Shown piece after piece: positions 2,265 to 37,456 of a DNA stretch of 37,456 nt (the first letter of the stretch is position 1; every line of letters starts with the position of its first letter). Source of the DNA: Nitrospinota bacterium (lineage in GTDB: Bacteria; Nitrospinota_A; UBA7883); assembly GCA_029879765.1 (NCBI GenBank), contig JAOUPQ010000003.1, positions 1-37,456 of the forward strand, in the 5' to 3' direction. Made by a program: the position numbers and the translations under genes. The notes below the pieces were generated by a model. It was not told the origin of the DNA. It saw nothing but the letters and a program-made list of their open reading frames with translations, and did not search any database.

Positions 2265-2333
2265 TTATCTTGATTGCCTGCTATACACGGAAGTAGAATG
2301 AAAACATATACTTTTAAAGAGTTTAACAAAGCC

Positions 2334-2672
2334 ATGGCCCTGATAGGCATATTGAACACGGCGAGGACTTTGAAGCAGGGCGCCACCATGCATATCGCCA
2401 AGGACGCGCCGGAGTATCTGGAAGCGATAAGCTATGTGGGTGTCTCCGCGCGGGAGATGGAAAAAGCCGGGATCAGCGAAGGCGACGACGTGGTGGTGAT
2501 CAGCGACCATGGCCAGGTGACCGTCCAGGCCAGAAAGATGGATCTGCAGCCCGGCTCGTTTTTCATGCCGCTGTCCTATCTGGCCAACCGCCTGGTATCC
2601 GCCGAAACCCACGGCGCGGGAGTTCCAGGATTCAAGAACACCGTCGTCACCATAAAGAAACCGGACGAATAA
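2334..2672 (+). CDS. fwdD: Formylmethanofuran dehydrogenase subunit D (molybdopterin dinucleotide-binding)
   Basis: ILNTARTLKQG start motif (FwdD-type LxTGRTxxQG), GDDVVVISDHGQV, FMP..ANRLV..THGAGVPGFK; lies directly upstream of fwdB. Start placed at ATG 2334 by alignment to the family N-terminus; ATG 2298 is possible. Confidence 0.88.
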   Translation: MALIGILNTARTLKQGATMHIAKDAPEYLEAISYVGVSAREMEKAGISEGDDVVVISDHGQVTVQARKMDLQPGSFFMPLSYLANRLVSAETHGAGVPGFKNTVVTIKKPDE

Positions 2673-2699: not shown

Positions 2700-4019
2700 A
2701 TGACAGCAGTAAAACAGGATGAAGGGATCACGGTAACCGAACATGTGGTGTGCCCCTTCTGCGCCACGCTTTGCGACGATCTGGTCATCCATGTGCAGAA
2801 CAACCAGGTGGTGAAGGTGCGCAATGGATGCAACCTGGCCAGGGGAGTGTTCGAAAACGCCCACAAGGAGTGGGCTACCCCCAGGGTAAATGGCAAGGAG
2901 GTTCCCTATGACTCGGCGGTGGAGGAAGCCGCCAGGATTCTGGCCGCCTCCAACAATCCGCTTATCTACGGCCTCGCCGCCACGGATGTGGACGCCCAGA
3001 AAAAGTGCATAGAGCTGGCGGACCTGATCGGCGCGAACCTGGACAACGCCTCCTCGGTTTGACACTCCCCCACCATGGTGGCACTACAGCTCGGCGGTGC
3101 GCCGGCTGCCACCTTGGGCGAAGTGAAGAACCGGGCGGACCTGGTCATATTCTGGGGCTCCAACCCAGCCGAGAGCCATCCGCGCCATTTCACGCGGTAT
3201 TCCGGCTCGGCCAAGGGAAGGATGAACCCCAGAGGGCGCAAGGACCGATACATTGTGCTGGTGGACATCCGCCCCACGCCATCGGTCAAATACGCCGACG
3301 AGTTCATCCAGATCAAGCCGGGGCATGACTATGAGGTGTTGACGGCCATGCGCATGCTCACCAACGGGAACCGGCCGGATATGGACAGCGTTGGCGATGT
3401 GGCGATCCAGACCCTGGAGCGGCTGGTCCAGCGATGCAAGGACGCCCGGCTGGGCGTTCTGTTCTTTGGCCAGGGGATCACCGAAACCCGTGGCAAACAC
3501 CAGAACTCCATGGCCATTTATCAATTCGGGAAGGATATGAGCCGCCACAGCAAGTTCCTGACCCTGCCGATGCGGGGCCATTACAACGTGGTGGGCAGCG
3601 GCAACACCATGTGCTGGCAGACCGGATACCCCTTCGCCGTGAACTTTGGCCGGGGATATCCCCAGTTCAACCCTGGCGAGTTTTCCGTGGTGGACCTGCT
3701 CAAGCGCAAAGAGCCGGACGCGGCGCTGATCGTGGCCGCCGAGCCGATGGATCATCTGCCTTACGAGGCGGCTCGGCATCTGGAAAATATCCCCACCATA
3801 GTGCTGGACCCGAGGGAGACCTTGACCACCAAGATGGCGGACGTGGTGATCCCGGTGAAACACGCCGGGGTCTCCGTGGAGGGGACGGCGTATCGCATGG
3901 ACCACATCCCGATCAAGATGCGGTCGGTGCTCAACTCCCCATGGCCGAAGGATGACGAGCCGTTGTCCACCATCATCGCGCGGATCAAGGCGATCAGGAA
4001 GGAAGAGGCGGAAACCTAG
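2700..4019 (+). CDS. fwdB: Formylmethanofuran dehydrogenase subunit B, predicted selenoprotein (TGA 3060-3062 = Sec121), 439 aa
   Basis: ORFs 2700-3062 and 3075-4019 share a frame and are separated only by one TGA. Read-through gives DNASSV-U-HSPT, matching the FwdB DNxxSVCH metal-ligand motif. C18/C21/C25/C44 [4Fe-4S] motif, TLGEVKNRADLVIFWGSNPAESHPRH and PMRGHYNV (R292/H294) are present; GGGAGAG RBS. Confidence 0.92.
3077..3113 (+). promoter_or_regulatory. Putative bacterial-type SECIS hairpin
   Basis: GGTGGC(3077-3082)/GCCACC(3108-3113), AGC/GCT and CGGCG/CGCCG stems, bulged T at 3091, G-initiated apical loop GTG (3097-3099) 34 nt after the TGA. Confidence 0.72.
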
Positions 4020-5660
4020 ATGGGAATCAGGATAGTAAATGGCGAGGTGATCGACCCTGCCCATGGCGAGGACAGGGTGAAAAGAGACGTCCATATCAAG
4101 GATGGCAAGATCGTGGCCGACGCCGGGCAGGACGCCACCGTCATCGACGCCACCGGCTGCGTGGTGATGGCGGGGGGGGTGGATATCCACACCCACGTGG
4201 CCGGGCCGAAGGTGAACTTCGCCCGCCTGATGAGGCCGGAGGACCATCGATATGAGCATGTGTCCCGGGAGGATGGATATGAGCGATCGGGAACCGGCGG
4301 GGTGGCCGCCACCACATATACCACCGGGTATCGATACTGCGAGATGGGATACACCACCATCGTGGAGCCTGCGGTGCCGCCGCTGGGCGCCCGCCATGCC
4401 CATGAGGAGCTGGTGGACATCCCCCAGGTGGATAAGGCCATATTCACATTGCTCGGCAACTCGGAGATCATCTTCCAATATCTGGAAAAGGGAGAGACCA
4501 GCAAGATCAACGAATACATCTCCTGGATCATGGACGCCACCAAGTCCTACTCGGTGAAGATCGTCAATCCCGGCGGGGCGAACATGTGGAAGTATCGCGC
4601 GGACATCCACGACATAGACCAGAAGCTGCGTGATTTCGACACCACACCGCGCCAGATTATCCTGGCCATAGCCGACGCCATGGCCACCCTGGGCCTGCCC
4701 CATCCCTTGCATCTGCACTGCAACAACCTGGGGGTGCCGGACAGCTATAAGACAGCCATCGCCACCGCCGAGGCGATGGAAGGCCGACCGCTGCACCTGA
4801 CCCATCTTCAATTCAGCAGCTACGGCGCCTCCGGCAAGCGCAAGTTCTCCTCCGAGGCGCCCAGGCTGGCCCGGATGGTGAACGACAACAAGAACATCAC
4901 CATCGACGTGGGGCAGGTCCTTTTCGGCAAGACCACCACCATCACCGCCGATGGACCCTTCGAATATCACCTGCACAAGCTCACCGGCTCCAAATGGTAT
5001 AACGGCGATGTGGAGTGCGAGGATGGATGCGGAGTGGTGCCCTATGACTACAAGCGCAAGTCTTTCGTCAACTGCATCCAGTGGGCGGCGGGGCTGGAGC
5101 TGTTCCTGCTGATTGACGACCCGTGGCGGGTGTATCTGACCACCGACCACCCCAACGGCGCTCCATTTATCACATATCCCCACCTGATCCGCCTGCTGAT
5201 GGACAAGGATTTTCGCCGGGAACAGGTGGAGAAGATCAGCGCGGAAGCCGCCGCCGAGATTCCCCTGAAAGTCCTGGATCGGGAATATACCTTGTATGAA
5301 ATCGCCATTATCACCCGCAGTGGCACGGCCAGAAGGCTGGGTCTTGTGAACAAGGGGCATCTGGGAGTTGGGGGCGATGCGGATGTGGCGGTGTATCGCG
5401 CCAGCAGGAATTGGGAGGAGATGTTCGCCAAGCCGGCCTGGGTGATCAAGGATGGGCAGGTGGTGGCCAAAGAGGGGAAGGTGACCCGGCAGGTGTTCGG
5501 AACTACCATGTATGTCCATCCGGCGCGGGGGTTTGCCGATATCGAAAAGGATCTGGCGGATTTCTTCGAGAGCTATTACACGGTGAACATCAACAACTAT
5601 CCTGTGGGATTGGAATACCTGCCCCGGCCGGAGCTTATCCCCTGTCAGGTGAAGGCATAA
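4020..5660 (+). CDS. fwdA: Formylmethanofuran dehydrogenase subunit A (binuclear amidohydrolase)
   Basis: GGVDIHTHVAGPKVN, YTTGYRYCEMGYTT, KIVNPGG, LHLHCNNLG, HLTHLQF, TTDHPNG and KGHLGVGGDADVAVY; starts directly after the fwdB TAG. Confidence 0.95.
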   Translation: MGIRIVNGEVIDPAHGEDRVKRDVHIKDGKIVADAGQDATVIDATGCVVMAGGVDIHTHVAGPKVNFARLMRPEDHRYEHVSREDGYERSGTGGVAATTYTTGYRYCEMGYTTIVEPAVPPLGARHAHEELVDIPQVDKAIFTLLGNSEIIFQYLEKGETSKINEYISWIMDATKSYSVKIVNPGGANMWKYRADIHDIDQKLRDFDTTPRQIILAIADAMATLGLPHPLHLHCNNLGVPDSYKTAIATAEAMEGRPLHLTHLQFSSYGASGKRKFSSEAPRLARMVNDNKNITIDVGQVLFGKTTTITADGPFEYHLHKLTGSKWYNGDVECEDGCGVVPYDYKRKSFVNCIQWAAGLELFLLIDDPWRVYLTTDHPNGAPFITYPHLIRLLMDKDFRREQVEKISAEAAAEIPLKVLDREYTLYEIAIITRSGTARRLGLVNKGHLGVGGDADVAVYRASRNWEEMFAKPAWVIKDGQVVAKEGKVTRQVFGTTMYVHPARGFADIEKDLADFFESYYTVNINNYPVGLEYLPRPELIPCQVKA

Positions 5661-6478
5661 TGATTACTCTGACGCTTAAGGGAAAGCTTTCTATCCCGCT
5701 GGAGGCGGATTCGGTCACCCCGGACAATTTGCATGACAAGTCCAACCACCAGATAAAGGAGCAGACAGTCTACTGGGGAAACAAGAAGAAGACCATCGGT
5801 GATTTTTTCGAGGTGGAGGGGGAGAGGTCGGACCGGATCACCGTGGTGGGAGATTGCGCCAAGGTGAAGTTGTTGGGGCATAAGATGAGCTTCGGGGCCG
5901 TGCATGTGAAAGGGAACACAGGCTATAACACCGGCTCCTATATGACCGGGGGGGCTATCACCATCGACGGGAACACCGCCGACTACCTGGGCGCCATGAT
6001 GGAGGGGGGGCTTATCGACCTGAAGGGGAACGCTGGCCATTTTGTGGGGGGCGCATACAAAGGGGAGACCGCCGGGATGACCGGTGGCGAGATCATTGTT
6101 CGGGGAAACGTGGGCCACGAAACGGGGAGCTTCATGCGGCGAGGTTTGATCGCCGTGGGAGGGAACGCCGGGGATTTTACCGGGCTTTTCATGCTGGCGG
6201 GGACGATTGTGGTGTTGGGGAAGGCTGGGGAGAGAGTGGGGGCGAACATGAGCCGTGGCTCCATCATCCTGATGAACCAGGCCAGGCTGCTGCCCAGTTT
6301 TCTGGAAAACGGAGTGGTGGCCACCCCGGCGGTGGAAATAGTCTTGGGCAGAGTCCGGGAGCTGGGGCTGGCTCCCGCTGGTGGTGGGCGATATGTGAGG
6401 CACACCGGCGACGTAAACGCAGTGGGGCGTGGGGAGATTCTGATGCGGGTGGTGAACCGGAACCACTTGCAGGTCTGA
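5660..6478 (+). CDS. fwdC: Formylmethanofuran dehydrogenase subunit C (GXGXG beta-helix)
   Basis: MITLTLKGKLSIPLEADSVTPD N-terminus and repeated GxxMxGGxIxxxGN units, GGAYKGETAGMTGG. The ATG overlaps the fwdA stop (TAATG), so the ORF-track start at 5411 is an over-extension. Confidence 0.93.
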   Translation: MITLTLKGKLSIPLEADSVTPDNLHDKSNHQIKEQTVYWGNKKKTIGDFFEVEGERSDRITVVGDCAKVKLLGHKMSFGAVHVKGNTGYNTGSYMTGGAITIDGNTADYLGAMMEGGLIDLKGNAGHFVGGAYKGETAGMTGGEIIVRGNVGHETGSFMRRGLIAVGGNAGDFTGLFMLAGTIVVLGKAGERVGANMSRGSIILMNQARLLPSFLENGVVATPAVEIVLGRVRELGLAPAGGGRYVRHTGDVNAVGRGEILMRVVNRNHLQV

Positions 6479-10134: not shown

Positions 10135-11157
10135 TTAACAGATGCGGGGCAATATTTCCCCATGGGGCATGTTGATCATCCTCTCCCCCCCCACCACGGA
10201 GGCGCTGGACACCCTTCCTGCCCGGCCTTCTTCCACGCGCCCTATGACCGCGGAGAGCTTTCCCAGGGGGTGGGCGCGCATTATGGCCAGGGCCTTTTCC
10301 ACATCCTTTTCGGGGGTAACCACCACCATCTTCCCCTCGTTGGCCACCACCATCGGATCCAGCCCCAACAGCTCGCACGCTCCGGCCACCGCCGTGGCCA
10401 TGGGGATGGCGCGCTCGTCCAGACGGATGGCCACGCCGGAGTCCGCAGCGATCTCGCATATGGTGGTGGCAAGCCCGCCCCGGGTGGGGTCGCGCATCAC
10501 ATGAGCGTCAACTCCCCCATCCAGCAGCGCCCGCGCCAGGGTGTGCAGCGCCGCGGTGTCGCTTTGTATCGGGGACTGAAAGCGCAATCCCTCCCGCTCG
10601 GACATCACGGCGATCCCATGGTCGCCAATGGTTCCGTTGATTATCACCACGTCTCCCGGACGCGCGCCAGAGGCGTGGATCTGCACCCCATCCGGGCGGT
10701 ATCCCACGCCGGAGGTGTTTATGAATATGCCGTCCGCCTTGCCGTGGGGGACCACTTTTGTGTCTCCACAAACGATCGGCACACCCGACGCTCTGGCCGC
10801 TTGGCCCATGGACCGCATCACCGTCCGCAGGTCCGCCAGCGGGAAGCCTTCTTCCAGGATCAGCCCGACGCTGAGGGCCACAGGAATGGCGCCGCTCATG
10901 GCCAGGTCGTTTATGGTGCCATTGAACGCCAGGTCGCCGATATTCCCCCCCGGAAAGGCCCAGGGGGAGACCACATAGCTGTCGGTCGTGAAGCTAAGCC
11001 AGGCGCCCGGTATGGTGAGAAGCGCGGAATCCTCCATGGGTGGCGCCCCATCGGCGCCATAGAGGGCGGGGACTATTGTCTTGCTGATCAGGTCATGAGT
11101 CAGCTTCCCCCCGGAGCCGTGGCCCAGAGAGACCAGATCCGCCCTGCTACTCACCAT
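10135..11157 (-). CDS. hypE: Hydrogenase maturation carbamoyl dehydratase HypE
   Basis: LGHGSGG, FTTDSYVV, FPGGNIG, GDTKVV, MRDPTRGG, ANEG and the diagnostic C-terminal PRIC. Confidence 0.96.
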   Translation of the reverse strand: MVSSRADLVSLGHGSGGKLTHDLISKTIVPALYGADGAPPMEDSALLTIPGAWLSFTTDSYVVSPWAFPGGNIGDLAFNGTINDLAMSGAIPVALSVGLILEEGFPLADLRTVMRSMGQAARASGVPIVCGDTKVVPHGKADGIFINTSGVGYRPDGVQIHASGARPGDVVIINGTIGDHGIAVMSEREGLRFQSPIQSDTAALHTLARALLDGGVDAHVMRDPTRGGLATTICEIAADSGVAIRLDERAIPMATAVAGACELLGLDPMVVANEGKMVVVTPEKDVEKALAIMRAHPLGKLSAVIGRVEEGRAGRVSSASVVGGERMINMPHGEILPRIC

Positions 11158-12244
11158 ACCCTCCATATCTGTACGCCGCCGCGCAGGTGCCTTCCGAAGA
11201 GACCATGCAGGCCCCGATAGGATTGTCCGGCGTGCAGGCGGAGCCGAAGAGCCTGCACTCCGGAGGATCGTTGAGTCCCTTCAGTATCCGGCCGCAGATG
11301 CAGGCAGGGTTCTCCTTCGGCTCCGGCAGGGTGACGCCGAACTTTTTTGACGCGTCGAACTTATCGAACTCCTCGGAAATGGCCAGTCCGCTGTCCGGTA
11401 TCGTCCCCAGTCCACGCCACACCGCGTCGGACTTCACAAACACCTGCCGCAGTATCTGCTGGGCCTTCTTGTTCCCCTCCGGTTTCACTACACGGTAATA
11501 CTCGTTTTCCACCTCCGCCCGCCCTTCGGCAGCCTGGCGCGCCAGCATGGCCAGCCCCTTCAGGATATCCAGCGGCTCAAAACCGGTGACCACGCAGGGC
11601 ATGCTGAATTTCTTCGCCACTGGAATGTACGCGTCGGCGCCTATGATGGCGGAGACATGGGCGGGGCATATGTATCCGTCCAGTTTGATTTCGCCGGAAG
11701 TGAGAACCTCCATGGGCTCCGGCATGGTCTTGTGGGCGCACAGCACGGAGTAATTGGCGATTCCTTCCCGTCTGGCCTCCAGGATGGAACAGGCGATCAG
11801 CGGGGCGGTGGTCTCGAACCCCACACCGAGGAAAACCACTTCCTTTGCCGGATTCTCTTTGGCCAGCGCCACTGCGTCCAGCGGGGAGTAGACCACCCGG
11901 ATCTCTTTTCCCGAGCTGCGCTCTTTTTGCAGGGTGGAGCGGCTGCCGGGAACCCGGACCATATCCCCAAAGGTTGTGATGGCCACGTTGGGTTGGGCGG
12001 CGATCTCCACGGCGGTGTCTACATAATTTATCGGGGTGACGCACACGGGGCATCCCGGCCCGGAGACCAGTTTGATACTCTTTGGGATCATGGAGCGAAT
12101 ACCGTAGCGGTAAATCGCCATGGTGTGGGTGCCGCAAACCTCCATCAGGGTAATCTGGCGATCCAGCCCGGAGGCGGCTTTGCGGATATCATCCGCCAGC
12201 TTGTCGGCGGTTTCTTTGTCGCGGAATTCGTTTATGTATTTCAT
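11147..12244 (-). CDS. hypD: Hydrogenase maturation protein HypD
   Basis: MEVCGTHT, GPGCPVC, GFETT, PAHVS, C-terminal Cys cluster and GACMVSSEGTCAA. ATG 12244 overlaps the hypC stop (ATGA); the ORF-track start at 12469 is an over-extension. Confidence 0.96.
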   Translation of the reverse strand: MKYINEFRDKETADKLADDIRKAASGLDRQITLMEVCGTHTMAIYRYGIRSMIPKSIKLVSGPGCPVCVTPINYVDTAVEIAAQPNVAITTFGDMVRVPGSRSTLQKERSSGKEIRVVYSPLDAVALAKENPAKEVVFLGVGFETTAPLIACSILEARREGIANYSVLCAHKTMPEPMEVLTSGEIKLDGYICPAHVSAIIGADAYIPVAKKFSMPCVVTGFEPLDILKGLAMLARQAAEGRAEVENEYYRVVKPEGNKKAQQILRQVFVKSDAVWRGLGTIPDSGLAISEEFDKFDASKKFGVTLPEPKENPACICGRILKGLNDPPECRLFGSACTPDNPIGACMVSSEGTCAAAYRYGGYGE

Positions 12245-12471
12245 CCGTCTGGGTTTTCCGTGTCGAGTATGTCCCGCATAAGTCGTATGGTCTCCTCCGC
12301 CGCTTCGGGGTCCACCTTTTCGATGGCGAACCCGGCGTGGATCATCACATAATCGCCCACCTCTACACCGTCGAGCATCATCAGGCTGGCCTCCTTGCGC
12401 ACCCCGCCGATCTCCGCGACGCAACGGTATTCCGATATCTCCACCACTTTCATCGGCACAGCCACACACAT
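12241..12471 (-). CDS. hypC: Hydrogenase maturation chaperone HypC
   Basis: MCVAVP N-terminus and VGDYVMIHAGFAI. Confidence 0.96.
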   Translation of the reverse strand: MCVAVPMKVVEISEYRCVAEIGGVRKEASLMMLDGVEVGDYVMIHAGFAIEKVDPEAAEETIRLMRDILDTENPDG

Positions 12472-12475
12472 GGTT

Positions 12476-14764
12476 CTATTTCTCCTTTCCTGCCAGGATT
12501 CTTTGTCCGGCGATCAGCGCCTGGCCCAGGGCGATGCCTCCATCGTTGGGCGGGACGCGGCGGTGGCGGAAAACGGTGAAGCCATCTTCCCGCAGCCTCT
12601 GGCCCAGCCTGTCGCTCACATACCGGTTCTGGAACACTCCGCCGGACAAGAACACCCGGTCCAGGCCCGTCTGTTTTTTCAGTCGCATGGCCACGGTCGC
12701 GGCGCCCTGCACCACGGCCTGATGGAACCTGGCGGCGATGAATTCCGTGGGCTTTTCCCGGATCACGTCCTCCACCAAAGCCTGGAATACCGGATAAAAG
12801 TCTAGAATCGGCAAGCCGTCATTCTCCACGACGCCCATCGGGTAACCTTCCTCCACAGGATTTTCAAGCGCCATTTCCAGCTCCAGGGCCGCCTGCCCCT
12901 CGAATGTTATCTTGGAGCGAATGCCGACAAGAGCCGAGGCCGCGTCGAACATTCTTCCCATGCCGTGGGAGAGGGGGGAGTTGAGCCTGTTGGTGGCCAT
13001 TTTCAGAATATTATTTTTCGTGTCCTCACTCAGCTCAATCAGCCAGGAAAGGGGCATCCGGGGGATATTTGGCCCATATATCCCGCCCAGGATGGCCAGG
13101 GCCACTCGCCACGGCTCCTGGATCGCCTTGTCGCCTCCCGGAAGAGGAACGGGGCTGACAGAACCCATCCGCTGATATCCATTGATCCCCCCGACGAGGA
13201 ATTCACCTCCCCAGATTCCCCCATCCTCGCCATAGCCTGTGCCATCGAAAATGATTCCGATGGCCTCTCCCTCCTGGTGGGTTTCCGCCATCAAGGACAC
13301 CATATGGGCATGATGATGCTGCACCGCCACCGTGGGGGCCATCTTCTGCTCGCTGGCCCAGTGGGAGCTCATGTAATCTGGGTGCATGTCATGCGCCACC
13401 GCCTCCACCTCCTTGATGTCCAGAAGCCGCATGAACCTTTCGATGGTCTCGCCGAGAGCCTCATACACGCTCTTATGTTTCAGGTCACCAATATGCTGGC
13501 TCAAAAACGCCTTGGATCCCTTTATCAGGCAGAAGGTGTTTTTCAGGTCCCCCCCCACCGCCAGGATGGATGGATACTCCCTGTTCAACATGATCGGCAC
13601 CGGCGCGTATCCCCTGGAGCGGCGCAGCACCACGCTTCCATGGGACATGGGCCGCTCGATGGAGTCATCCTCCCGGGTGTGGATCTCCCGGTCGTGGGTC
13701 AGGAATGCGTCCGCCACTCCCCCAAGCTTCTCCAGCGCGTCCTCGTCCTTGAAGACTATCGGCTCATCGGAATTGTTGGCGCTGGTCATGATCATGGCGC
13801 CCAGGAACGCGTCGCTCATGATCAGGTGATGCAGGGGGGTGTATGGCAGCATGGCGCCGATGTACCGGTTGCGGGGCGAGGCTGATTTCATCAGACGGGA
13901 GTATTTCTTCTCCACCAGGATAATGGGCCGGCTGTGGGACTCCAGCAGCGATCGCACCGTGTCGTTTTCCATGATGAAAGGAATCAGCGCCCCGTAGCTG
14001 GGGAACATTACCGCGAACGGTTTTTCGTCGCGTTTCTTCAGCTCCCGGAGGCGATGCACCGCTTTTTCATCCAGCGCGTTTACAGCCAGGTGGTATCCCC
14101 CGATCCCTTTTATCGCCACCACGTGCCCCCTCTTTAGCTGAATCATTGTGGCCTCGAGAGGGTCGGTATAACTTGCTGGCTTGAAATTGGAGTCCCGATA
14201 GGTGAGCCTGGGGCCGCAGGAGTGGCAACCTATCGGTTGGGCATGGAACCGGCGGTTCTGGGGGCTTTCATACTCCGCTCGGCATTCGGAGCACATGCTG
14301 AACCTGCCCATGGTGGTGTTGGGCCTGTCATAGGGGATGTCTGTAATGATGGAGTAACGGGGGCCGCAATCGGTGCAGCTGATGAATGGATAGCGGTATC
14401 TCCGGTTTTGCGGATCGAAAAGCTCCCGTATGCATTGCTTGCAGACGTCAGAATCCGGCGCTATAAGCGCGGATTTCTCCCCTTCGCCCATGCTCTTTTC
14501 GATGCTGAACCCGCGAGTGGATTTTAATTCAATGGATACTTCTTCCAGCTTGATAATATGGGCCATGGGCGGGGCCTCGTTCATAACTCTCTGCGCGAAG
14601 GCATCAACCGATTTTTCCGGGCCCTGGATCTCTATCTCCACCCCTTTGCCATGGTTTAGCACATGACCGGCAAGGTTCATGTAGTTGGCCAGGTTATATA
14701 CAAAAGGGCGGAATCCCACTCCCTGGACGATTCCCTCGATCTTGATCAGGGTTCGTTTCATCAT
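12476..14764 (-). CDS. hypF: Carbamoyltransferase HypF
   Basis: GIVQGVGFRPF acylphosphatase domain, two pairs of CxxC zinc fingers, KGIGGYHL, HHHAH and PPNDGGIALGQ; GGAG RBS before ATG 14764/14761. Confidence 0.96.
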   Translation of the reverse strand: MMKRTLIKIEGIVQGVGFRPFVYNLANYMNLAGHVLNHGKGVEIEIQGPEKSVDAFAQRVMNEAPPMAHIIKLEEVSIELKSTRGFSIEKSMGEGEKSALIAPDSDVCKQCIRELFDPQNRRYRYPFISCTDCGPRYSIITDIPYDRPNTTMGRFSMCSECRAEYESPQNRRFHAQPIGCHSCGPRLTYRDSNFKPASYTDPLEATMIQLKRGHVVAIKGIGGYHLAVNALDEKAVHRLRELKKRDEKPFAVMFPSYGALIPFIMENDTVRSLLESHSRPIILVEKKYSRLMKSASPRNRYIGAMLPYTPLHHLIMSDAFLGAMIMTSANNSDEPIVFKDEDALEKLGGVADAFLTHDREIHTREDDSIERPMSHGSVVLRRSRGYAPVPIMLNREYPSILAVGGDLKNTFCLIKGSKAFLSQHIGDLKHKSVYEALGETIERFMRLLDIKEVEAVAHDMHPDYMSSHWASEQKMAPTVAVQHHHAHMVSLMAETHQEGEAIGIIFDGTGYGEDGGIWGGEFLVGGINGYQRMGSVSPVPLPGGDKAIQEPWRVALAILGGIYGPNIPRMPLSWLIELSEDTKNNILKMATNRLNSPLSHGMGRMFDAASALVGIRSKITFEGQAALELEMALENPVEEGYPMGVVENDGLPILDFYPVFQALVEDVIREKPTEFIAARFHQAVVQGAATVAMRLKKQTGLDRVFLSGGVFQNRYVSDRLGQRLREDGFTVFRHRRVPPNDGGIALGQALIAGQRILAGKEK

Positions 14765-14771
14765 TTCTCCC

Positions 14772-15434
14772 TTAACGCTCCTGGAGCAGGGAAAGCAGAA
14801 AGTCGTACCAGTCATCCATGCCATCGCCGGTTTTGGCGGAGACGTGGAACACTTTCAATGACTGGTTCACCTTCATGGAGTAATCCAGAAGCCGACCCAT
14901 GTCCAGATCCAGGTGGGGCAGCAGATCGGTCTTGGTGATGATCATGGCCGACGATGAGCGGAACGCTTTGGGGTACTTCACCGGTTTGTCCTCCCCCTCG
15001 GTGACGGAGACCAGGGCCACTTTCATCTCCTCGCCCAGGTCATAGGAAGCCGGGCAAACCAGGTTGCCCACGTTTTCGATGAACAGAAAACCGGGACCCG
15101 CAAAGCCCAGCTTCTCCAGCGCTTCCTCCACCATGGCCGCGTCCAGATGGCAGGCGGACTGGGTGTTGATCTGTATTACAGGGGCCCCCGTGGCGGCGAT
15201 CTTTCTGGCGTCGTTGTCGGTCTGTTGATCCCCCTCCAGCACCGCGATGGGAACCCTCGATTTAAGATCCTCGATAGTCTTCACCAGCATGGTGGTCTTG
15301 CCGGAACCTGGGGAGCTGATGAAATTGATGGCCACTATCCCCCTCTGCCGCAGCTTCTCTCTTATGCCTGCGGCTATCTGGTCGTTCTTCGACAGAACGT
15401 CCTTTTTGACATCAATTATCCTCACCCCGATCAC
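14772..15434 (-). CDS. hypB: Hydrogenase nickel-insertion GTPase HypB (short form, no His-rich N-terminus)
   Basis: SSPGSGKTT, CHLDA, ENVGNLVCPA, EGEDKPVKYP and TKTD. Confidence 0.96.
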   Translation of the reverse strand: MIGVRIIDVKKDVLSKNDQIAAGIREKLRQRGIVAINFISSPGSGKTTMLVKTIEDLKSRVPIAVLEGDQQTDNDARKIAATGAPVIQINTQSACHLDAAMVEEALEKLGFAGPGFLFIENVGNLVCPASYDLGEEMKVALVSVTEGEDKPVKYPKAFRSSSAMIITKTDLLPHLDLDMGRLLDYSMKVNQSLKVFHVSAKTGDGMDDWYDFLLSLLQER

Positions 15435-15772
15435 TCCACGGAAATGTTATCCACATACAATTCCTCCCCGCTGACTATCCTTCCCCCGAAGGCGCCGCAT
15501 TGGGGGCAGATGGCCAGAGGATTGTCCGGTTTAAACTCCCGGGCGCACTCCCCGCACACCGCCCTGGCTGCCACCCTCTCGATCACCAGCTCGCTTCCTT
15601 CCGCCGCCGTGCCCATGGCGCAGGCGGAGTAGCAGAATTCCACTGCCCCAGCCTCCACGCCAGAGAGCTCCCCAACGGTCACATTGACCTTCATCACCCT
15701 GGCGCCCCCCTCCTCATTTAGCCGGGACACGGCTATATCCACAATGCTCATGGCCACAGACATTTCGTGCAT
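15431..15772 (-). CDS. hypA: Hydrogenase nickel metallochaperone HypA
   Basis: MHE N-terminus at ATG 15772, CGEC and CPQC zinc site, GEEL. Confidence 0.95.
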   Translation of the reverse strand: MHEMSVAMSIVDIAVSRLNEEGGARVMKVNVTVGELSGVEAGAVEFCYSACAMGTAAEGSELVIERVAARAVCGECAREFKPDNPLAICPQCGAFGGRIVSGEELYVDNISVE

Positions 15773-15789
15773 GGCCTCGGCCGCGCCTT

Positions 15790-16299
15790 CTACCTGTCCA
15801 CCGTCACTTCCGCCGCCACCGGCGTCGCAAGCTTCATGGTGGAGGAAACGGGGCAATGGGCCGCCGCCAGGTCTATAAGCTCCCTGGTTTTAGCTTCATC
15901 GGCGGTGGTTTTGAGCCGGACTTTATACGACACATTCCGGAAACCCGGATTAACGTCCGCCACGTTGAACAACCCCCGCAGGTCGATATCTCCTGTCAGT
16001 TCCACATTCACCGCCTCCAGCTCGATATCCAGCATGGCGGCGTATTCCACGAACACCGCGCTGACACAGGATCCCAGCGCCATCAGCATCATCTCCATCG
16101 GGTTGGGGGCCTGGTCGTCCCCGCCGGAAGGAACCGGATAGTCCGACATGACAACATGGGTCCTGATACGGTTTTCGTTGAGCAGGCCGCCTTTCCATTC
16201 TGTGGACACACCAGGCCGATACACCGCGGCCTCAGGTTTTTTAACGAAGAGCGCCTTGCGGCTGGTCAGGATGTCTTTAAGAGGACGTCGCTCATTCAA
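15790..16299 (-). CDS. OsmC/Ohr-family redox protein
   Basis: DYP..GGDDQAPNPME..ALGSC and HCPVS two-Cys signature; TTG start with AGGAG RBS, overlapping the pepA end by 8 nt. Confidence 0.88.
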   Translation of the reverse strand: MNERRPLKDILTSRKALFVKKPEAAVYRPGVSTEWKGGLLNENRIRTHVVMSDYPVPSGGDDQAPNPMEMMLMALGSCVSAVFVEYAAMLDIELEAVNVELTGDIDLRGLFNVADVNPGFRNVSYKVRLKTTADEAKTRELIDLAAAHCPVSSTMKLATPVAAEVTVDR

Positions 16300-32692: not shown

Positions 32693-35086
32693 ATGGGGTT
32701 AATCAAACTTTCCGCTTTTGCGCTGTCGTTCTGTTTCGCCTTTTTTGGCGCCGCACTGGGCGCCCATGGGGCGGTTTTGGCGCTTCCTGCGCAAATTTCC
32801 GAAAACGTGGGGCCCATATCCCTGGCGCCGCATATGGAGTGGATGGAGGACAGGGGCCGTGAATTGACCATCGAGGATGTGACCTCGCTCCCCAGATCTT
32901 CCGATTTCCGGCCGGTAGGCGCCAGCTTTTACAGCTATTTTCTTTCCGAATCCGCTTTCTGGTATCGGCTGACCATCAGGAATCCATCGTCAAGGGAGCA
33001 GCTGATGGTTCTGCAGAACGAAGTATCGTGGCTGGATGTGGTGGAGATGTATGAGCAGGGCCCGGAGGGTGGATTCCGGATGCGGCGGGCTGGGGATTCC
33101 ATACCTTTCCGGGAAAGAGAGTTCTCCCACCCCACGGCGGTGTTCCACATCTCGCTGGCGCCGGGAGAAGAGAGGACATTCCACTTTCGGGTGGAGGCCA
33201 TGGATGCTTTCCTCTCCCCCTTTACCCTGTGGGAAGACAAAGCCTTCGAAGAGAGCGACCGGGGCCGGACCATATATTTCGGGACTATCCTGGGGATAAT
33301 CACGGTCATGTTCTTCTTCAACGTGATCCTGATGTTTTTCCTGCGGGAGAGACGCTATCTTCAATACAACATCTATCTGTCCATCCTGGGTATATGGTTT
33401 CTCACCTACAACGGATTTTCCTTCCAGTATATCTGGCCCGAATCTCCCGTGTTCCAGAACAGGATGATGGTCTTTCTGGACTATGCCATGCAGCTTAGCG
33501 CGGTACTGTTCACCAGGGCGTTTCTTGACTCGAGAAACACCTTGCCGACTCTGGACAAGGTGCTATCGGGAGTCATCTGGCTATTCGTGGTCATGATTGT
33601 CGTCGATATAATAACTCCATTCCATTACTTCACGGGATTTGTATGTCTTGTCTTCCTGCAACTGTATGGCCCCTTGCTGGCGGTCTCCGGGCTGGTGGCG
33701 TTGCGCGCAGGCATCCGGTCAGCCCGGTTTTTCCTGCTGGCGTGGATTTCCACCACCATCGGTGTGTCGCTGACGGCGCTGATAGTGGTGGGCGTTCTGC
33801 CCTACAGCTTCTGGCTGTTCAGGGCAGGGGAGATCGGCGTGATGATGGATATCGTGCTGCTGGCCCTGGCTTTGGCGGACCGGATAAACATCCTGCGTCT
33901 GGAAAAAGAGGAGGCCCAGCTCACATCCAGAAAAGTCCTGGAAAAAGCCAGGGAGGAATTGACCGTCAAAGTGGAGGAGCGTACCTTGGAGCTGCGTGAG
34001 GCCCTGCGTCGGGCGGAAGAGGCCACGAAGCTGAAAGACAAGTTCGTCAGCCTGGTCTCCCACGATCTGCGCAGCCCCCTGGCCTCCATGAAAGGGTTGG
34101 TGGAGGCGATAGACCTGGATGATGACTCGCCGACTGTGGCGGAGAAAAACATCAATTATCTGCGGCGCGTGTCGCTATCGCTGGGTGGTCTGCTGCAAAT
34201 GACAGAGCAGCTTCTGAATCTGACCCGTATCAAGACTGGCAGAATCACCCCTATGAAAAAGATGTTCAACGCCCGGCAGAGGGTGGGGGCGTTGCTGGTG
34301 TTGATGGAGCCCACCGCCTCTCAGAAAGGAATAGAACTGGCCAACAACCTGCCGGAGGATATGACTCTGCTGGCGGATCTGGACCTATACCAGGAAGTGA
34401 TCCGCAACCTGGTGTCCAATTCCATAAAGTTTTGCAGGTCTGGGGACATGGTGACGGTGCACTCTCCCCCAGGGTACCAGAACACCGTGGCGGTTCGGGA
34501 TACGGGGCCTGGCATAGATAAAGAGACTTTGTCCAGGCTGTTCACCCATGGAGAGAAAACCACCAAAGTGGGAAGCGCTGGGGAAAAGGGGACCGGGCTG
34601 GGGCTGGAGTTCAGCCACGAGATAATGCTGGCCCATGGCGGAGACCTTACCGTCAGCCCCTTGGAGGGTGGTGGTGTGGAGTTTTATGTGACCCTGCCGG
34701 CCAGCCGCGCGATCATCCTGCTGGTGGATGACCAGAAAGTCCATCGAAAAATGATGCTGGACGCCATGGGCTCCGAGCTTTCCGTCGACGTGCTGGAAGC
34801 GGATGATGGGATCGAGGCGCTGGAGATAATGAAGCTGGCCAGGCCAGACCTTGTGGTGGTGGATGTTTTTATGCCGGGGATTAACGGACTTGAGCTTCTT
34901 AAGATAATGAAAAACACCCCCGCGCTCTCATCCATCCCGGTGATTATAGCGGCCACAGTTTCCCACTACGATGGCCAGGCAGACGCCATGCGGGCCCAGG
35001 CTTTGCAGATGGGAGCGGTGGATCTGGTGGAAAAGCCGCTGGAAGCCGAAGAATTCCTTGAGGCCATTTTAAAAATTCTCGCATAA
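32693..35086 (+). CDS. 7TM-DISM hybrid sensor histidine kinase (7TMR-DISMED2, 7TM, HisKA, HATPase, receiver)
   Basis: Signal peptide, SAFWYRL extracellular motif, hydrophobic 7TM block ending LALADRI, SHDLRSP H-box, NLVSNSIKF, DTGPG, GTGLGL, and receiver LVDD..DVFMPG..KP. Confidence 0.92.
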   Translation: MGLIKLSAFALSFCFAFFGAALGAHGAVLALPAQISENVGPISLAPHMEWMEDRGRELTIEDVTSLPRSSDFRPVGASFYSYFLSESAFWYRLTIRNPSSREQLMVLQNEVSWLDVVEMYEQGPEGGFRMRRAGDSIPFREREFSHPTAVFHISLAPGEERTFHFRVEAMDAFLSPFTLWEDKAFEESDRGRTIYFGTILGIITVMFFFNVILMFFLRERRYLQYNIYLSILGIWFLTYNGFSFQYIWPESPVFQNRMMVFLDYAMQLSAVLFTRAFLDSRNTLPTLDKVLSGVIWLFVVMIVVDIITPFHYFTGFVCLVFLQLYGPLLAVSGLVALRAGIRSARFFLLAWISTTIGVSLTALIVVGVLPYSFWLFRAGEIGVMMDIVLLALALADRINILRLEKEEAQLTSRKVLEKAREELTVKVEERTLELREALRRAEEATKLKDKFVSLVSHDLRSPLASMKGLVEAIDLDDDSPTVAEKNINYLRRVSLSLGGLLQMTEQLLNLTRIKTGRITPMKKMFNARQRVGALLVLMEPTASQKGIELANNLPEDMTLLADLDLYQEVIRNLVSNSIKFCRSGDMVTVHSPPGYQNTVAVRDTGPGIDKETLSRLFTHGEKTTKVGSAGEKGTGLGLEFSHEIMLAHGGDLTVSPLEGGGVEFYVTLPASRAIILLVDDQKVHRKMMLDAMGSELSVDVLEADDGIEALEIMKLARPDLVVVDVFMPGINGLELLKIMKNTPALSSIPVIIAATVSHYDGQADAMRAQALQMGAVDLVEKPLEAEEFLEAILKILA

Positions 35087-35164
35087 ACTGGCCCAAGCTA
35101 AAAAAATAGCCCAGGCTTGCGTGGATGGATTACAATTCTATATCGGTATATGTCGAAGGTTCTC

Positions 35165-37456
35165 ATGAAAACTGGTTGGCTAGCTTTATACATTTCTGTT
35201 TTCTGCCTCCTTGCGCCCAATCCTGCCCGGGCGGCGGTGGCCGGATCTGCCCCCAAAGTGGTTTTATCCGAGGATCAGGGAAAATACATCCTGGGATACT
35301 CCATGAAGATTGTGGAAGACAAGCAGCGACAGTGGACTATTGAAGACGTCCGGTCGAAGAAAATCGACGCCATGTTCACGCCGCTGAAAAAACAGGTTCC
35401 CAGCCTCGGTTTTACCTCCAGCGCCTATTGGTACAAGGTGGAAATCTACAATTCCACCCGGCAGGTGTTCGAAGGAATCCTGGAGGAGGAGATCGCCTGG
35501 ATAGACCAGATCGATATATACGAGGTGAGAGCCAACGGAAGCGCCCATATCCTGCGATCCGGGGAGCTTCGCCTCAGGGACGAGGCGCAGATGCGGAGCA
35601 GGTCCCATCTGTTGGACATTTCATTCCACCCTTATCAAATCAAGACCTTGTATATCAGGGTGGAGACAAAAGACACCTTCGTCACTCCTTTTACACTCTG
35701 GAGCGTCAAAGCCTTCGCCCAGGCGGATTCCTGGCGGGCCTATTATTTCGGCGCCCTTTTCGGGGCTATCGCGCTGATGTTTGTCTACAACCTGGTGCTC
35801 CACGCGTTCACCCGTGACGTAAATTATTTGTACTACGTGGTGTACCTGTTCGCCGGTTTCATGTTCGCATTCTCCTACAACGGATTTTCCCGGCTGCTGC
35901 TGTGGCCGGAGCATCCAGGGTTTTCCGACACTATCGTAAACGCGCTAAGCTTCCTTTTCCAGATGACGGCCACTATCTTCACCAGGCAGTTTCTGCAAAC
36001 CAGGCAGGCCATGCCCCGGGCGGACAGGCTGCTCCAGGGGATGGTGTGGATGTACGTGGCGCTGGCCCTTCTTCGGGGCGCAGGGGTGGCGGTTTACTCC
36101 ATGAATTACATGGCTGTGCTGACCTTGCAGCTGTACATGCCGGTGTTGGCGGTGATTGGTATTGTCGCTTTCCGGAATGGAAACCGGGCCGCCAGGTTTT
36201 TCCTGATGGCCTGGCTGGCCTCCACTGTGGGCATGGTGGTGGGCGCTTCCACTGTGATGGGGATTATAAGTTACAGCTTTCTTGGAATGCACGCGGGGGA
36301 GATGGGGGTGATGCTGGACATGGCGCTTCTGGCGGTGGCGCTGGCGGACCGGATAAACATCCTTAACACACAAAAACAGGCCGCGGAGCATCTGGCCCGG
36401 CGGACCATGGAACAAGCCAGGGACACCCTGGAGATGAAGGTGGCCGAGCGCACGGTGGCGCTGAAGCAGGCAAAGGACAGGGCCGAGGAAGCCACCCGGC
36501 TAAAAGACAATTTCATGAGCCTGATCTCCCACGATCTGCGCAGCCCTGTGGGGGCCATCTCCGGTTTGCTCAACCGCGCCATCAGCCTGCCTGTCGCCGA
36601 AGAGGAGAAAAAGAAGGACTTCATATCCCGAGCCCAAAGCGCCGCCGATCGCATGCTGCGCATGCTCGACCATCTGTTGAACATATCCATGTTGAAGACC
36701 GGCAAACTGGTTCCCATAAAAGCGCTGTTTCGCCCAAGGGCCCTGTTGGATGACCTTCTGGAGGATGTAAGCATCCTTGCCACCCGGAAGGAGGTGCGGA
36801 TCATCAACGATCTGCCCGCGGAAGCCAGCCTGATGGCGGACAGGAGCCTGACCAACGAAGTGCTGCTCAACCTGCTGACCAACGCCATAAAGTTCTGCCG
36901 CAGTGGCGACACGGTGACCGTATTCCTGGCGCAGGAAGAACCGATGGTCATCGGCGTGAGGGACACCGGCATGGGGATCAGCATGCCCATTGAGGATCTG
37001 TTTCGTCATGAAGTAAAGACCACCACCCCCGGCACGGCAGGAGAGCGGGGAATGGGCCTGGGGCTGCCATACTGCCAGGATATTATGGAAGCCCATGGCG
37101 GCCATATCGAAGTCGGCTCCACTCCCGGCGCCGGGAGCGAGTTTTTGCTCCGGTTCCCTCCCCGCAGGCGTATGGTGATGCTGGTGGATGACCAGCAGGC
37201 CCACAGGAGCATGATGAAAGAGGCGATCCAGGAGGTGGAGAATGTTGACTTTGTGGAGGCCAACAACGGGGTGGAAGCGATGGAAATCGTGAGAATGGGG
37301 GCGCCGGACCTGATTGTGACCGATGTGGTGATGCCTGGCATGGGGGGATTGGAGTTTCTTCAGAAGCTTCGGGATAATCCGAAGCTGAAAAACACACCGG
37401 TGATCATGGCCACTGCCCATTCTAGCTCGGAGGATGAGGAAAAAACGCTCCGGTTG
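35165..37456 (+). CDS. Second 7TM-DISM hybrid histidine kinase, truncated by the window end (not in the ORF track)
   Basis: Manual translation from ATG 35165 (or 35150) stays open to the window end: MKTGWLALYISVF..SAYWYKV..VALADRINIL..SHDLRSP..NLLTNAIKFCRSGD..DTGMG..GMGLGL..LVDDQQAHR..TDVVMPG. Confidence 0.92.
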   Translation, partial: MKTGWLALYISVFCLLAPNPARAAVAGSAPKVVLSEDQGKYILGYSMKIVEDKQRQWTIEDVRSKKIDAMFTPLKKQVPSLGFTSSAYWYKVEIYNSTRQVFEGILEEEIAWIDQIDIYEVRANGSAHILRSGELRLRDEAQMRSRSHLLDISFHPYQIKTLYIRVETKDTFVTPFTLWSVKAFAQADSWRAYYFGALFGAIALMFVYNLVLHAFTRDVNYLYYVVYLFAGFMFAFSYNGFSRLLLWPEHPGFSDTIVNALSFLFQMTATIFTRQFLQTRQAMPRADRLLQGMVWMYVALALLRGAGVAVYSMNYMAVLTLQLYMPVLAVIGIVAFRNGNRAARFFLMAWLASTVGMVVGASTVMGIISYSFLGMHAGEMGVMLDMALLAVALADRINILNTQKQAAEHLARRTMEQARDTLEMKVAERTVALKQAKDRAEEATRLKDNFMSLISHDLRSPVGAISGLLNRAISLPVAEEEKKKDFISRAQSAADRMLRMLDHLLNISMLKTGKLVPIKALFRPRALLDDLLEDVSILATRKEVRIINDLPAEASLMADRSLTNEVLLNLLTNAIKFCRSGDTVTVFLAQEEPMVIGVRDTGMGISMPIEDLFRHEVKTTTPGTAGERGMGLGLPYCQDIMEAHGGHIEVGSTPGAGSEFLLRFPPRRRMVMLVDDQQAHRSMMKEAIQEVENVDFVEANNGVEAMEIVRMGAPDLIVTDVVMPGMGGLEFLQKLRDNPKLKNTPVIMATAHSSSEDEEKTLRL

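Follow-up and report, generated by a model that had tools for sequence, protein, structure and literature searches.

Background

Does the UGA that interrupts a bacterial fwdB gene terminate translation, or does it encode selenocysteine (Sec) at the metal-ligand position of a formylmethanofuran dehydrogenase (FMD)? The question is raised by a 37,456-nucleotide stretch of DNA from a Nitrospinota bacterium (NCBI GenBank assembly GCA_029879765.1, contig JAOUPQ010000003.1, positions 1 to 37,456 of the forward strand), hereafter referred to as the window, in which fwdB at 2700-4019 contains an in-frame TGA at 3060-3062. A reading of the window made without database searches (hereafter the sequence-only reading) had proposed a hidden selenoprotein at this site. 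The analysis described here indicates that the UGA very probably encodes Sec, because the TGA is conserved among relatives, the gene is under purifying selection, the four codons that follow the TGA (HSPT) vary only synonymously, the genome carries the Sec machinery, TGA serves as an ordinary stop in other genes of the window and a hairpin just after the codon is frozen in sequence.

According to the mechanism proposed here, FwdB would act as catalytic subunit in a bacterial formylmethanofuran dehydrogenase (FwdDBAC), and its tungsten or molybdenum (W/Mo) ligand would be a Sec residue inserted at UGA 3060-3062 by the bacterial SelB and tRNA-Sec. The insertion would be directed by a hairpin lying within the coding sequence, to which SelB is predicted to bind.

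The fwdB reading frame and its operon

The gene runs on the forward strand from ATG 2700 to TAG 4017-4019 in a single frame of 439 codons and a stop; the two apparent halves share this frame, as the sequence-only reading had stated, and the sole internal stop is TGA 3060-3062 in the context DNASSV-U-HSPT. Genetic code table 11 yields two open reading frames (ORFs) from the same stretch, 2700-3062 (120 aa) and 3075-4019 (314 aa). The read-through protein matches TIGR03129 (NCBIfam, FMD subunit B) over residues 15-429 of 439 with 506.6 bits, against a cut-off of 327.8. In a phmmer search of the PDB chains, U121-H122 is aligned to Cys118-His119 of PDB 5T5I chain B, which places U121 opposite the catalytic Cys as had been anticipated; the [4Fe-4S] cysteines C18, C21, C25 and C44 are aligned in the same chain and the PMRGHYNV block, which includes R292 and H294, aligns with it gap-free. 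PMC11656701 names His119 and His290 among the residues of the active site. The earlier claim that the four cysteines, the His next to the TGA and R292/H294 are all retained holds well, as C18, C21, C25, C44, U121, H122, R292 and H294 lie on invariant columns in all 103 full-length homologues among the best 120 database matches, and the ligand residue opposite U121 is Cys in each of the 103. Membership of the FwdB/FmdB family (TIGR03129) is borne out by the profile match, the four-Cys motif, the Cys/Sec-His pair with R-G-H and the FwdD, FwdA and FwdC partners.

The operon has the order fwdD-fwdB-fwdA-fwdC with all genes on the + strand, and no fwdF or fwdG polyferredoxin gene was found in the fwd operon of the window. 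The start of fwdD is probably ATG 2298 (in frame, with GGAAG upstream), the ORF finder having given TTG 2274, and the fwdC start ATG 5660 overlaps the fwdA stop (TAATG). The features are as follows.

2298..2672, + strand: fwdD, molybdopterin-dinucleotide-binding domain subunit (PF01568, 50.9 bits; NF042908 FwdD, 75.2 bits)
2700..4019, + strand: fwdB read through the UGA, 439 aa (TIGR03129, 506.6 bits; 5T5I_B, 395 bits)
3060..3062, + strand: TGA, putative Sec codon (U121) at the site of the W/Mo ligand (opposite Cys118 of 5T5I_B; conserved TGA)
3077..3113, + strand: hairpin resembling a selenocysteine insertion sequence (SECIS) (RNA folds, synonymous-site freeze, alignment, pair counts)
4020..5660, + strand: fwdA, amidohydrolase subunit condensing formate with methanofuran (TIGR03121, 713.4 bits)
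5660..6478, + strand: fwdC, GXGXG subunit (TIGR03122, 246.8 bits, match from residue 85 of a longer ORF)

Probable translation through the TGA

Relatives of fwdB were sought in 33 genomes of the phylum, the window genome (G000) included, with a match threshold of E<=1e-30. The gene was found in 8 of the 33, all from one Nitrospinota family (f1; 7/7 genomes besides G000) and representing six genera; no match at this threshold was seen in the 25 genomes of the other families (0/25), and the window genome has one match only. Each of the eight genes (8/8), which share 77-91% amino acid identity, carries exactly one TGA, and these fall in a common alignment column.

Selection was estimated with the Nei-Gojobori method on the eight genomic orthologues (28 pairs), one of which (L029) was cut at its deletion and another (L030) is partial at a contig end. 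The proportion of nonsynonymous differences (pN, 0.04-0.24) lies far under that of synonymous differences (pS, 0.31-0.95) in all 28 pairs. The corresponding ratio of substitution rates (dN/dS) is 0.09-0.30 upstream of the TGA (20/28 pairs with unsaturated dS) and 0.05-0.16 downstream (17/28 pairs with unsaturated dS). The half of fwdB after the TGA is constrained at least as strongly as the half before it, and the relaxed selection that the earlier reading had counted as contrary evidence is not seen there. Between the TGA and ATG 3075, codons +1 to +4 (HSPT) show synonymous changes only (CAC/CAT, TCC/TCA/TCG, CCC/CCG/CCA and ACC/ACA/ACT/ACG), which is not the behaviour of an untranslated spacer between two genes.

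These patterns bear directly on the best surviving alternative, in which the UGA is a true stop and fwdB is a split gene, encoding a 120-aa Fe-S domain and, from ATG 3075, a 314-aa pterin domain that would form a ligand-less, non-redox scaffold of the Fhc type. Table 11 gives exactly two such ORFs, the databases hold a 313-aa form and the Cys-His pair is lost in many divergent homologues, the full set of residues being kept in 12 of 150 cluster representatives. A split gene is nevertheless very unlikely, since the 12 nt from the TGA to ATG 3075 evolve as codons with synonymous changes only, His122 and R292/H294 are kept, no Shine-Dalgarno sequence precedes ATG 3075 (a C-rich stretch is found instead, ATG 2700 being preceded by GGGAGAG), the full Sec machinery is present and the nucleotides are frozen exactly at the expected SECIS site, as described in the following sections.

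Selenocysteine machinery in the genome

The window genome (378 contigs, 3.04 Mb, 94% complete) contains selA (564 bits), selB (363 bits) and selD (294 bits), all above their cut-offs, and a tRNA-Sec, which ARAGORN assigns to type SeC with the anticodon tca and which matches Rfam RF01852 with 77.2 bits (cut-off 47), so that each of the four components which the sequence-only reading presupposed was found. No other UGA-reading tRNA was reported by ARAGORN among the 44 tRNAs of the genome. The selD gene has an in-frame TGA of its own (...ATSGG-U-GSK..., G000:C126:845-847, - strand), and the resulting UxxK motif matches that listed for SelD (PMC13188914).

In the window, TGA terminates 4 of the 19 identified genes, namely fwdC, hypA, pepA and uvrB, and an internal TGA is seen in fwdB and in none of the other identified genes; general reassignment of the codon is thereby excluded. 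Reading of the UGA by a route other than Sec, through such reassignment or through near-cognate insertion of Cys or Trp, has in its favour that read-through itself is supported and that the identity of the inserted residue is a prediction from sequence. It is nonetheless highly improbable, somewhat more so than the split gene, given the ordinary use of TGA as a stop, the typing of the tca tRNA as SeC with no other UGA reader reported, and the occurrence of Sec at the same position in archaeal FwdB, of which the codon pattern scan described below recovered 13 cases.

A selA match is present in 14 of the 33 phylum genomes, which include 7 of the 8 of family f1, and in 14 of the 18 genomes of the order to which the window belongs, i.e. 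in most of its families (G000 counted in both cases); none was found in the 14 genomes of family f8 (0/14) or in the single genome of f9 (0/1). The Sec trait thus splits the phylum. The idea that FwdB is the selenoprotein anchoring the Sec trait was rejected, as selA occurs in sister families that have no fwdB (f2 3/3, f4 1/1, f5 1/2, f6 1/1, f7 1/1). A loss of Sec decoding accompanying a damaged fwdB was likewise considered for the genome G028 and rejected; it has no selA match, yet it retains a tRNA-Sec (79 bits) and selB (359 bits), and incompleteness of the genome (90% complete) is the simpler reading of the missing match.

Conservation of the TGA in metagenomes and contigs

A metagenome scan recovered ten further relatives (77-91% identity), and the TGA is present in 10/10, so that homologues with TGA at this codon, which the sequence-only reading had led one to look for, now include the eight family genomes and ten metagenome loci. 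Together they amount to 18/18 loci with TGA at the same codon, representing 14 distinct 70-nt sequences; the 18 loci are not independent, some of the metagenome loci being the same contigs as genome loci. Logan contigs from three DNA runs of three studies span 3060-3062 and show no difference there, their differences being confined to positions 2876, 3083, 3361, 3623 and 3674. A check of the TGA in raw reads had been suggested; the evidence consists of contigs and not raw reads, one of the runs is possibly the source of the window assembly, and the contigs of all three runs keep the TGA. The codon is not an assembly slip. A contig of 173 nt from a metatranscriptome library, belonging to a relative of ~91% identity (15 differences), spans 2959-3131 across the TGA; 9/9 listed differences affect third positions of codons, and both the TGA and 3087-3106 are free of them. 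This contig gives a weak hint of transcription, as RNA libraries can contain DNA.

A nonsense mutation, or a sequencing or assembly error, in a decaying fwdB, for which the internal deletion or frameshift later in the fwdB of one relative (G028; loci L029 and L066) might be cited, is already refuted by the conservation of the TGA in 18/18 loci (14 distinct local sequences), the downstream dN/dS of 0.05-0.16, the agreement of the contigs of three runs and three studies at 3060-3062 and the third-position-only differences in the RNA-library contig that crosses the TGA.

In the two loci just mentioned (L029, on G028:C141, and L066), fwdB is without residues ~335-388 and has a frameshift, with read-through into fwdA (open frame >800 aa). 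A near-identical metagenome contig (L040) has an intact fwdB. The damage reflects either an artefact of the assembly or a deletion specific to the strain.

A candidate SECIS element after the UGA

Immediately downstream of the UGA, RNAfold predicts a hairpin whose middle stem is formed by 3077-3083/3107-3113 (G18-A24/U48-C54, the U of the UGA being position 1), followed by an internal loop, an upper stem of 3089-3096/3100-3106 (G30-G37/C41-C47) with a bulged U at 3091 (U32) and an apical loop GUG at 3097-3099 (G38-U39-G40), which starts 34 nt after the UGA. The minimum free energy (MFE) is -46.5 kcal/mol over 101 nt (z -3.11; 0/200 shuffles as good). Codons +9 to +14 (CAG CTC GGC GGT GCG CCG) are identical in all eight genomes and the neighbouring codons vary freely. 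When codon diversity was measured in sliding windows of seven degenerate codons of conserved residues each, its value at these codons was 0.077, the lowest of 253 windows, against a gene mean of 0.516; the 20-nt apex of the hairpin (3087-3106) is identical in 14/14 distinct sequences. The hairpin is under nucleotide-level constraint, and this is the strongest evidence for an RNA element. Helices 2 and 3 are 92-100% paired across the 14 distinct sequences.

In searches for bacterial SECIS elements the distance from the UGA to the apical loop is set at roughly 16-37 nt and a G is looked for near the start of the loop; in the SECIS of E. coli fdhF a U is bulged and the loop includes a GU. These features are matched by the hairpin of fwdB, whose spacing is at the long end. 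In the selD gene of the window genome, the UGA is followed by a GC-rich 8-bp stem and a 3-nt loop GGA, in which the G comes first.

Several observations weigh against the interpretation of this hairpin as a SECIS element and of the UGA as a Sec codon. Over 61 nt the MFE of -27.1 kcal/mol has a modest z-score (-1.57; 17/200 shuffles as good). Among the core-helix pairs of the 14 sequences, 12/14 are invariant and two change on one side only, the one double change lying in the lower helix; 340/500 shuffles match the observed percentage of pairing and 302/500 the covariation score, and the RNAalifold covariation term is -0.02. As the core of the hairpin never varies, covariation on these 14 sequences is uninformative. 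No Rfam family, SECIS or other, was found in the window at the gathering thresholds, and a search of 3030-3160 at E<=10 gave two chance-level antisense matches only. The spacing stands at the far end of the range, the loop lying 34 nt past the UGA in fwdB and 17 nt past it in selD of the same genome. Constraint on the protein might in principle account for the invariance of the peptide QLGGAPA; such constraint would not freeze the four- and sixfold degenerate third positions that are seen frozen in its codons. Lastly, we infer the incorporation of selenium and the catalytic competence of FwdB from conserved residues, and the binding of SelB to the hairpin, the identity of the metal, the activity and the direction of the reaction are likewise predictions.

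A smaller hairpin nearer the UGA (CCACC/GGUGG) was considered and rejected, as it is the MFE structure of one sequence only (L025) and substitutions at column 12 disrupt it in 6/14 sequences.

Comparison with known systems

Sec-containing FwdB proteins (FwdB/FwuB) were reportedly described from Methanopyrus kandleri and the Methanococcales by Vorholt in 1997 (cited in PMC13188914). The window protein shares with such archaeal proteins the site at which Sec is proposed, the motif SV-U-H-x-P and the catalytic residues. It differs in sequence (44-46% identity to the full-length Methanocaldococcus and Methanothermococcus rows), in its placement in a separate half of the tree (100/98) and in the absence of the fwdF/fwdG polyferredoxin genes from the operon of the window. 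In archaea the SECIS is located outside the reading frame, whereas the candidate in the window is in frame, just after the UGA. The tungsten FwdB of Methanothermobacter wolfeii (5T5I_B; 395 bits, residues 13-432) has the four-Cys motif, the ligand-His pair and the RGH motif in common with the window protein, but carries Cys118 instead of Sec, and QDVGYPIC where the window FwdB has QLGGAPAA.

Among bacterial homologues, FhcB of the methylotrophs (6S6Y) works with Ftr/FhcD, FhcA and FhcC in one-carbon (C1) oxidation linked to tetrahydromethanopterin (H4MPT). FhcB is described as devoid of Mo/W-bis(pyranopterin guanine dinucleotide) (PMC10100899), whereas every ligand and catalytic residue tested is kept in the window FwdB. 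An FhcB identity, i.e. that of a non-redox scaffold, was therefore rejected, as the protein keeps the ligand position together with His122 and R292/H294 and its match to 6S6Y_B is weak (64 bits). In the methylotrophs the last step is performed by the Fhc hydrolase and then formate dehydrogenase, whereas a redox-active FMD is proposed for the window. The bacterial Sec formate dehydrogenases (FdhA/FdhH, with U-H-x-P) belong to the same superfamily and are similar in their U-H pair and in an in-frame SECIS directly after the UGA; they show 25-36% identity over ~110-250 residues, have a fused D-type domain and are without FwdA/FwdC partners.

The nearest published parallel in kind dates from 2016, when fmdB of a bacterial fmdD-B-A-C operon was predicted from sequence to be of the Sec type in the planctomycete 'P2' (Rhodopirellula), as it was in two unclassified bacteria (PMC4807772). 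It is similar to the window in being bacterial, in the prediction of Sec in FMD subunit B and in the operon order fmdD-fmdB-fmdA-fmdC; it differs in phylum, and P2 is reported to have both Sec and Cys copies (PMC4807772), whereas one fwdB was found in the window genome. Two reviews count FMD-B among the selenoprotein families that occur in both domains (PMC9312934, PMC13188914). Two of the texts on Sec-FMD-B do not contain 'Nitrospin'. A 2023 survey reports 149 bacterial and 399 archaeal FwdB representatives and remarks that Sec causes truncated annotations (PMC10100899). The sequence-only reading had proposed a catalytically competent Sec-FwdB in a bacterium. The Sec part of this proposal is supported; competence is suggested by the residues present in the sequence, and the implied novelty was overstated, as bacterial Sec-FmdB is already in print (PMC4807772, PMC9312934, PMC13188914).

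Place among homologues and possible origin of the selenocysteine

The 17 closest of the best 120 database matches (80-91% identity) are all C-terminal only, with lengths of 298-320 aa, and several of these are named 'formylmethanofuran dehydrogenase subunit B [Nitrospinota bacterium]'. The public annotation of fwdB thus covers only the C-terminal ~313 aa, and the expectation that gene callers would split the gene is confirmed by these fragments. The other 103 of the best 120 matches are full-length Cys forms with ~50-63% identity, including proteins named from Methylomirabilales/NC10, Anaerolineae and Chloroflexi metagenome-assembled genomes.

An IQ-TREE tree of 48 rows was inferred, the rows being required to keep R292/H294 and to cover region 150-430 with 200 residues or more; one row was too short and was dropped. 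P0006, a Cys-type protein, is the sister of the Nitrospinota Sec clade (support 100/99), and this clade lies in the bacterial half of the tree (100/98), apart from the half which holds all nine TGA-verified archaeal Sec genes. P0006 (450 aa, 63% identical) retains HSPTMVALQLGGAPAATLGEV and has Cys where the Sec clade has U; this exact peptide encodes the hairpin in the Sec clade. The segment ends in Cys (QxxGxPxC-T) in the displayed bacterial Cys-type homologues and in the tallied nine-residue segments, as well as in two solved archaeal FwdB and 12/13 archaeal Sec genes. Throughout the Nitrospinota Sec clade this Cys is replaced by Ala (A137, codon GCC 3108-3110), and the codon lies in the 3' strand of the hairpin.

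A strict codon pattern, G-x3-[L/I/V/M/F]-D-N-x2-S-V-U-H-x-P, was scanned against 185,579 species-representative genomes and gave 26 loci, comprising 7 fwdB genes of family f1, 13 archaeal Sec-fwdB genes, 4 FdhA-like Sec genes and 2 chance matches. No bacterial Sec-fwdB outside the Nitrospinota family was found by this strict pattern in the 185,579 genomes, a result that, given the residues demanded, is not evidence of absence. The published planctomycete case was not among the loci. A separate bacterial fwdB clade (P0138, P0280, P0154, P0176, P0190 and P0211) consists of N-terminally truncated proteins in 6/6 cases, their first residues matching positions 131-150 of the query; if the fragment P0191 of Methanococcus voltae is a guide, this clade may represent a second bacterial Sec-fwdB lineage. 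P0280 begins MGGKPAATLGE.

A tentative scenario, which we regard as possible and a little more apt to be wrong than right, is that a Cys-to-Sec switch in the family ancestor gave the Nitrospinota FwdB its Sec, an origin inside bacteria and separate from that of the methanogen Sec-FwdB. The in-frame SECIS would then have rewritten a peptide near the active site from QxxGxPxC to QLGGAPAA, P0006 would be either a Sec-to-Cys revertant with a fossil SECIS or a pre-adapted precursor, and the bacterial clade of truncated proteins would have acquired Sec independently as well.

Among the FwdB-like proteins at large, the whole CCCC|CH|RH set is kept in only 12 of the best 150 representatives of 50% clusters. 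Most of the divergent proteins keep the four Fe-S cysteines without the Cys-His pair and R/H, an assignment in which columns may be misplaced at 30-35% identity. The FwdB homologues P0122, P0124, P0125, P0127, P0129, P0130 and P0208, of 570-606 aa, have an N-terminal extension of ~140-165 aa and may be FwdD-FwdB fusions.

Pathway context

Elsewhere in the window genome were found ftr (401 bits), mch (358 bits), which lies beside an MptN-like H4MPT:glutamate ligase gene and a pabB-like gene, and an Mpt_N match for a methylene-H4MPT dehydrogenase of the MtdA/B type (102 bits). FwdDBAC together with Ftr, Mch and the MtdA/B-type dehydrogenase would constitute an H4MPT/methanofuran route in which formyl-methanofuran is oxidised directly to CO2. 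A C1-oxidation route of this kind, with a redox-active FMD releasing CO2 in the last step, is the most economical reading of the gene content. The reverse direction, reduction of CO2 by FwdDBAC, is also possible, the direction of C1 flow being predicted from gene content. It counts against the oxidative route that no Fae, CdhC or bona fide FdhA above the cut-off was found in the 94%-complete genome, which leaves the pathway reading incomplete.

Annotation and significance

Bacterial Sec-FMD-B is already known, and a Sec-fwdB in this genome will not surprise specialists in selenoproteins. The new elements are the lineage, the dependence on Sec with a single copy and the in-frame SECIS candidate that replaces an otherwise conserved peptide. 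The analysis corrects a systematic mis-annotation, the FwdB of this Nitrospinota family having been deposited as a ~313-aa fragment; as a consequence, the methanofuran/H4MPT C1 module and the selenium dependence of the lineage are easily missed. The terms formylmethanofuran, methanopterin, fwd, formaldehyde and selen- are absent from the main text of a 2024 comparative study of Nitrospinota. A full-text literature search linking Nitrospinota with formylmethanofuran gave one unrelated paper, a supplementary mention being possible.

To a selenoprotein family known mostly from methanogens, the present data add a family-wide, single-copy bacterial case with an in-frame SECIS candidate, and they provide a clean case of a candidate bacterial SECIS reshaping a conserved peptide from within the frame. 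They also bear on a debate raised in two reports (PMC7331816, PMC10100899), namely which of Sec and Cys is the ancestral residue in FwdB and in the dimethyl sulfoxide reductase superfamily. The understanding of how Sec-FMDs work is unchanged.

Other features of the window

A hydrogenase maturation cluster, hypE-hypD-hypF-hypB-hypA, occupies 10135-15856 on the - strand, 3.6 kb downstream of the fwd operon. At 32693-37456 on the + strand, two hybrid histidine kinases are encoded in tandem. Both have 7TMR-DISM sensor domains, and the second runs off the window.

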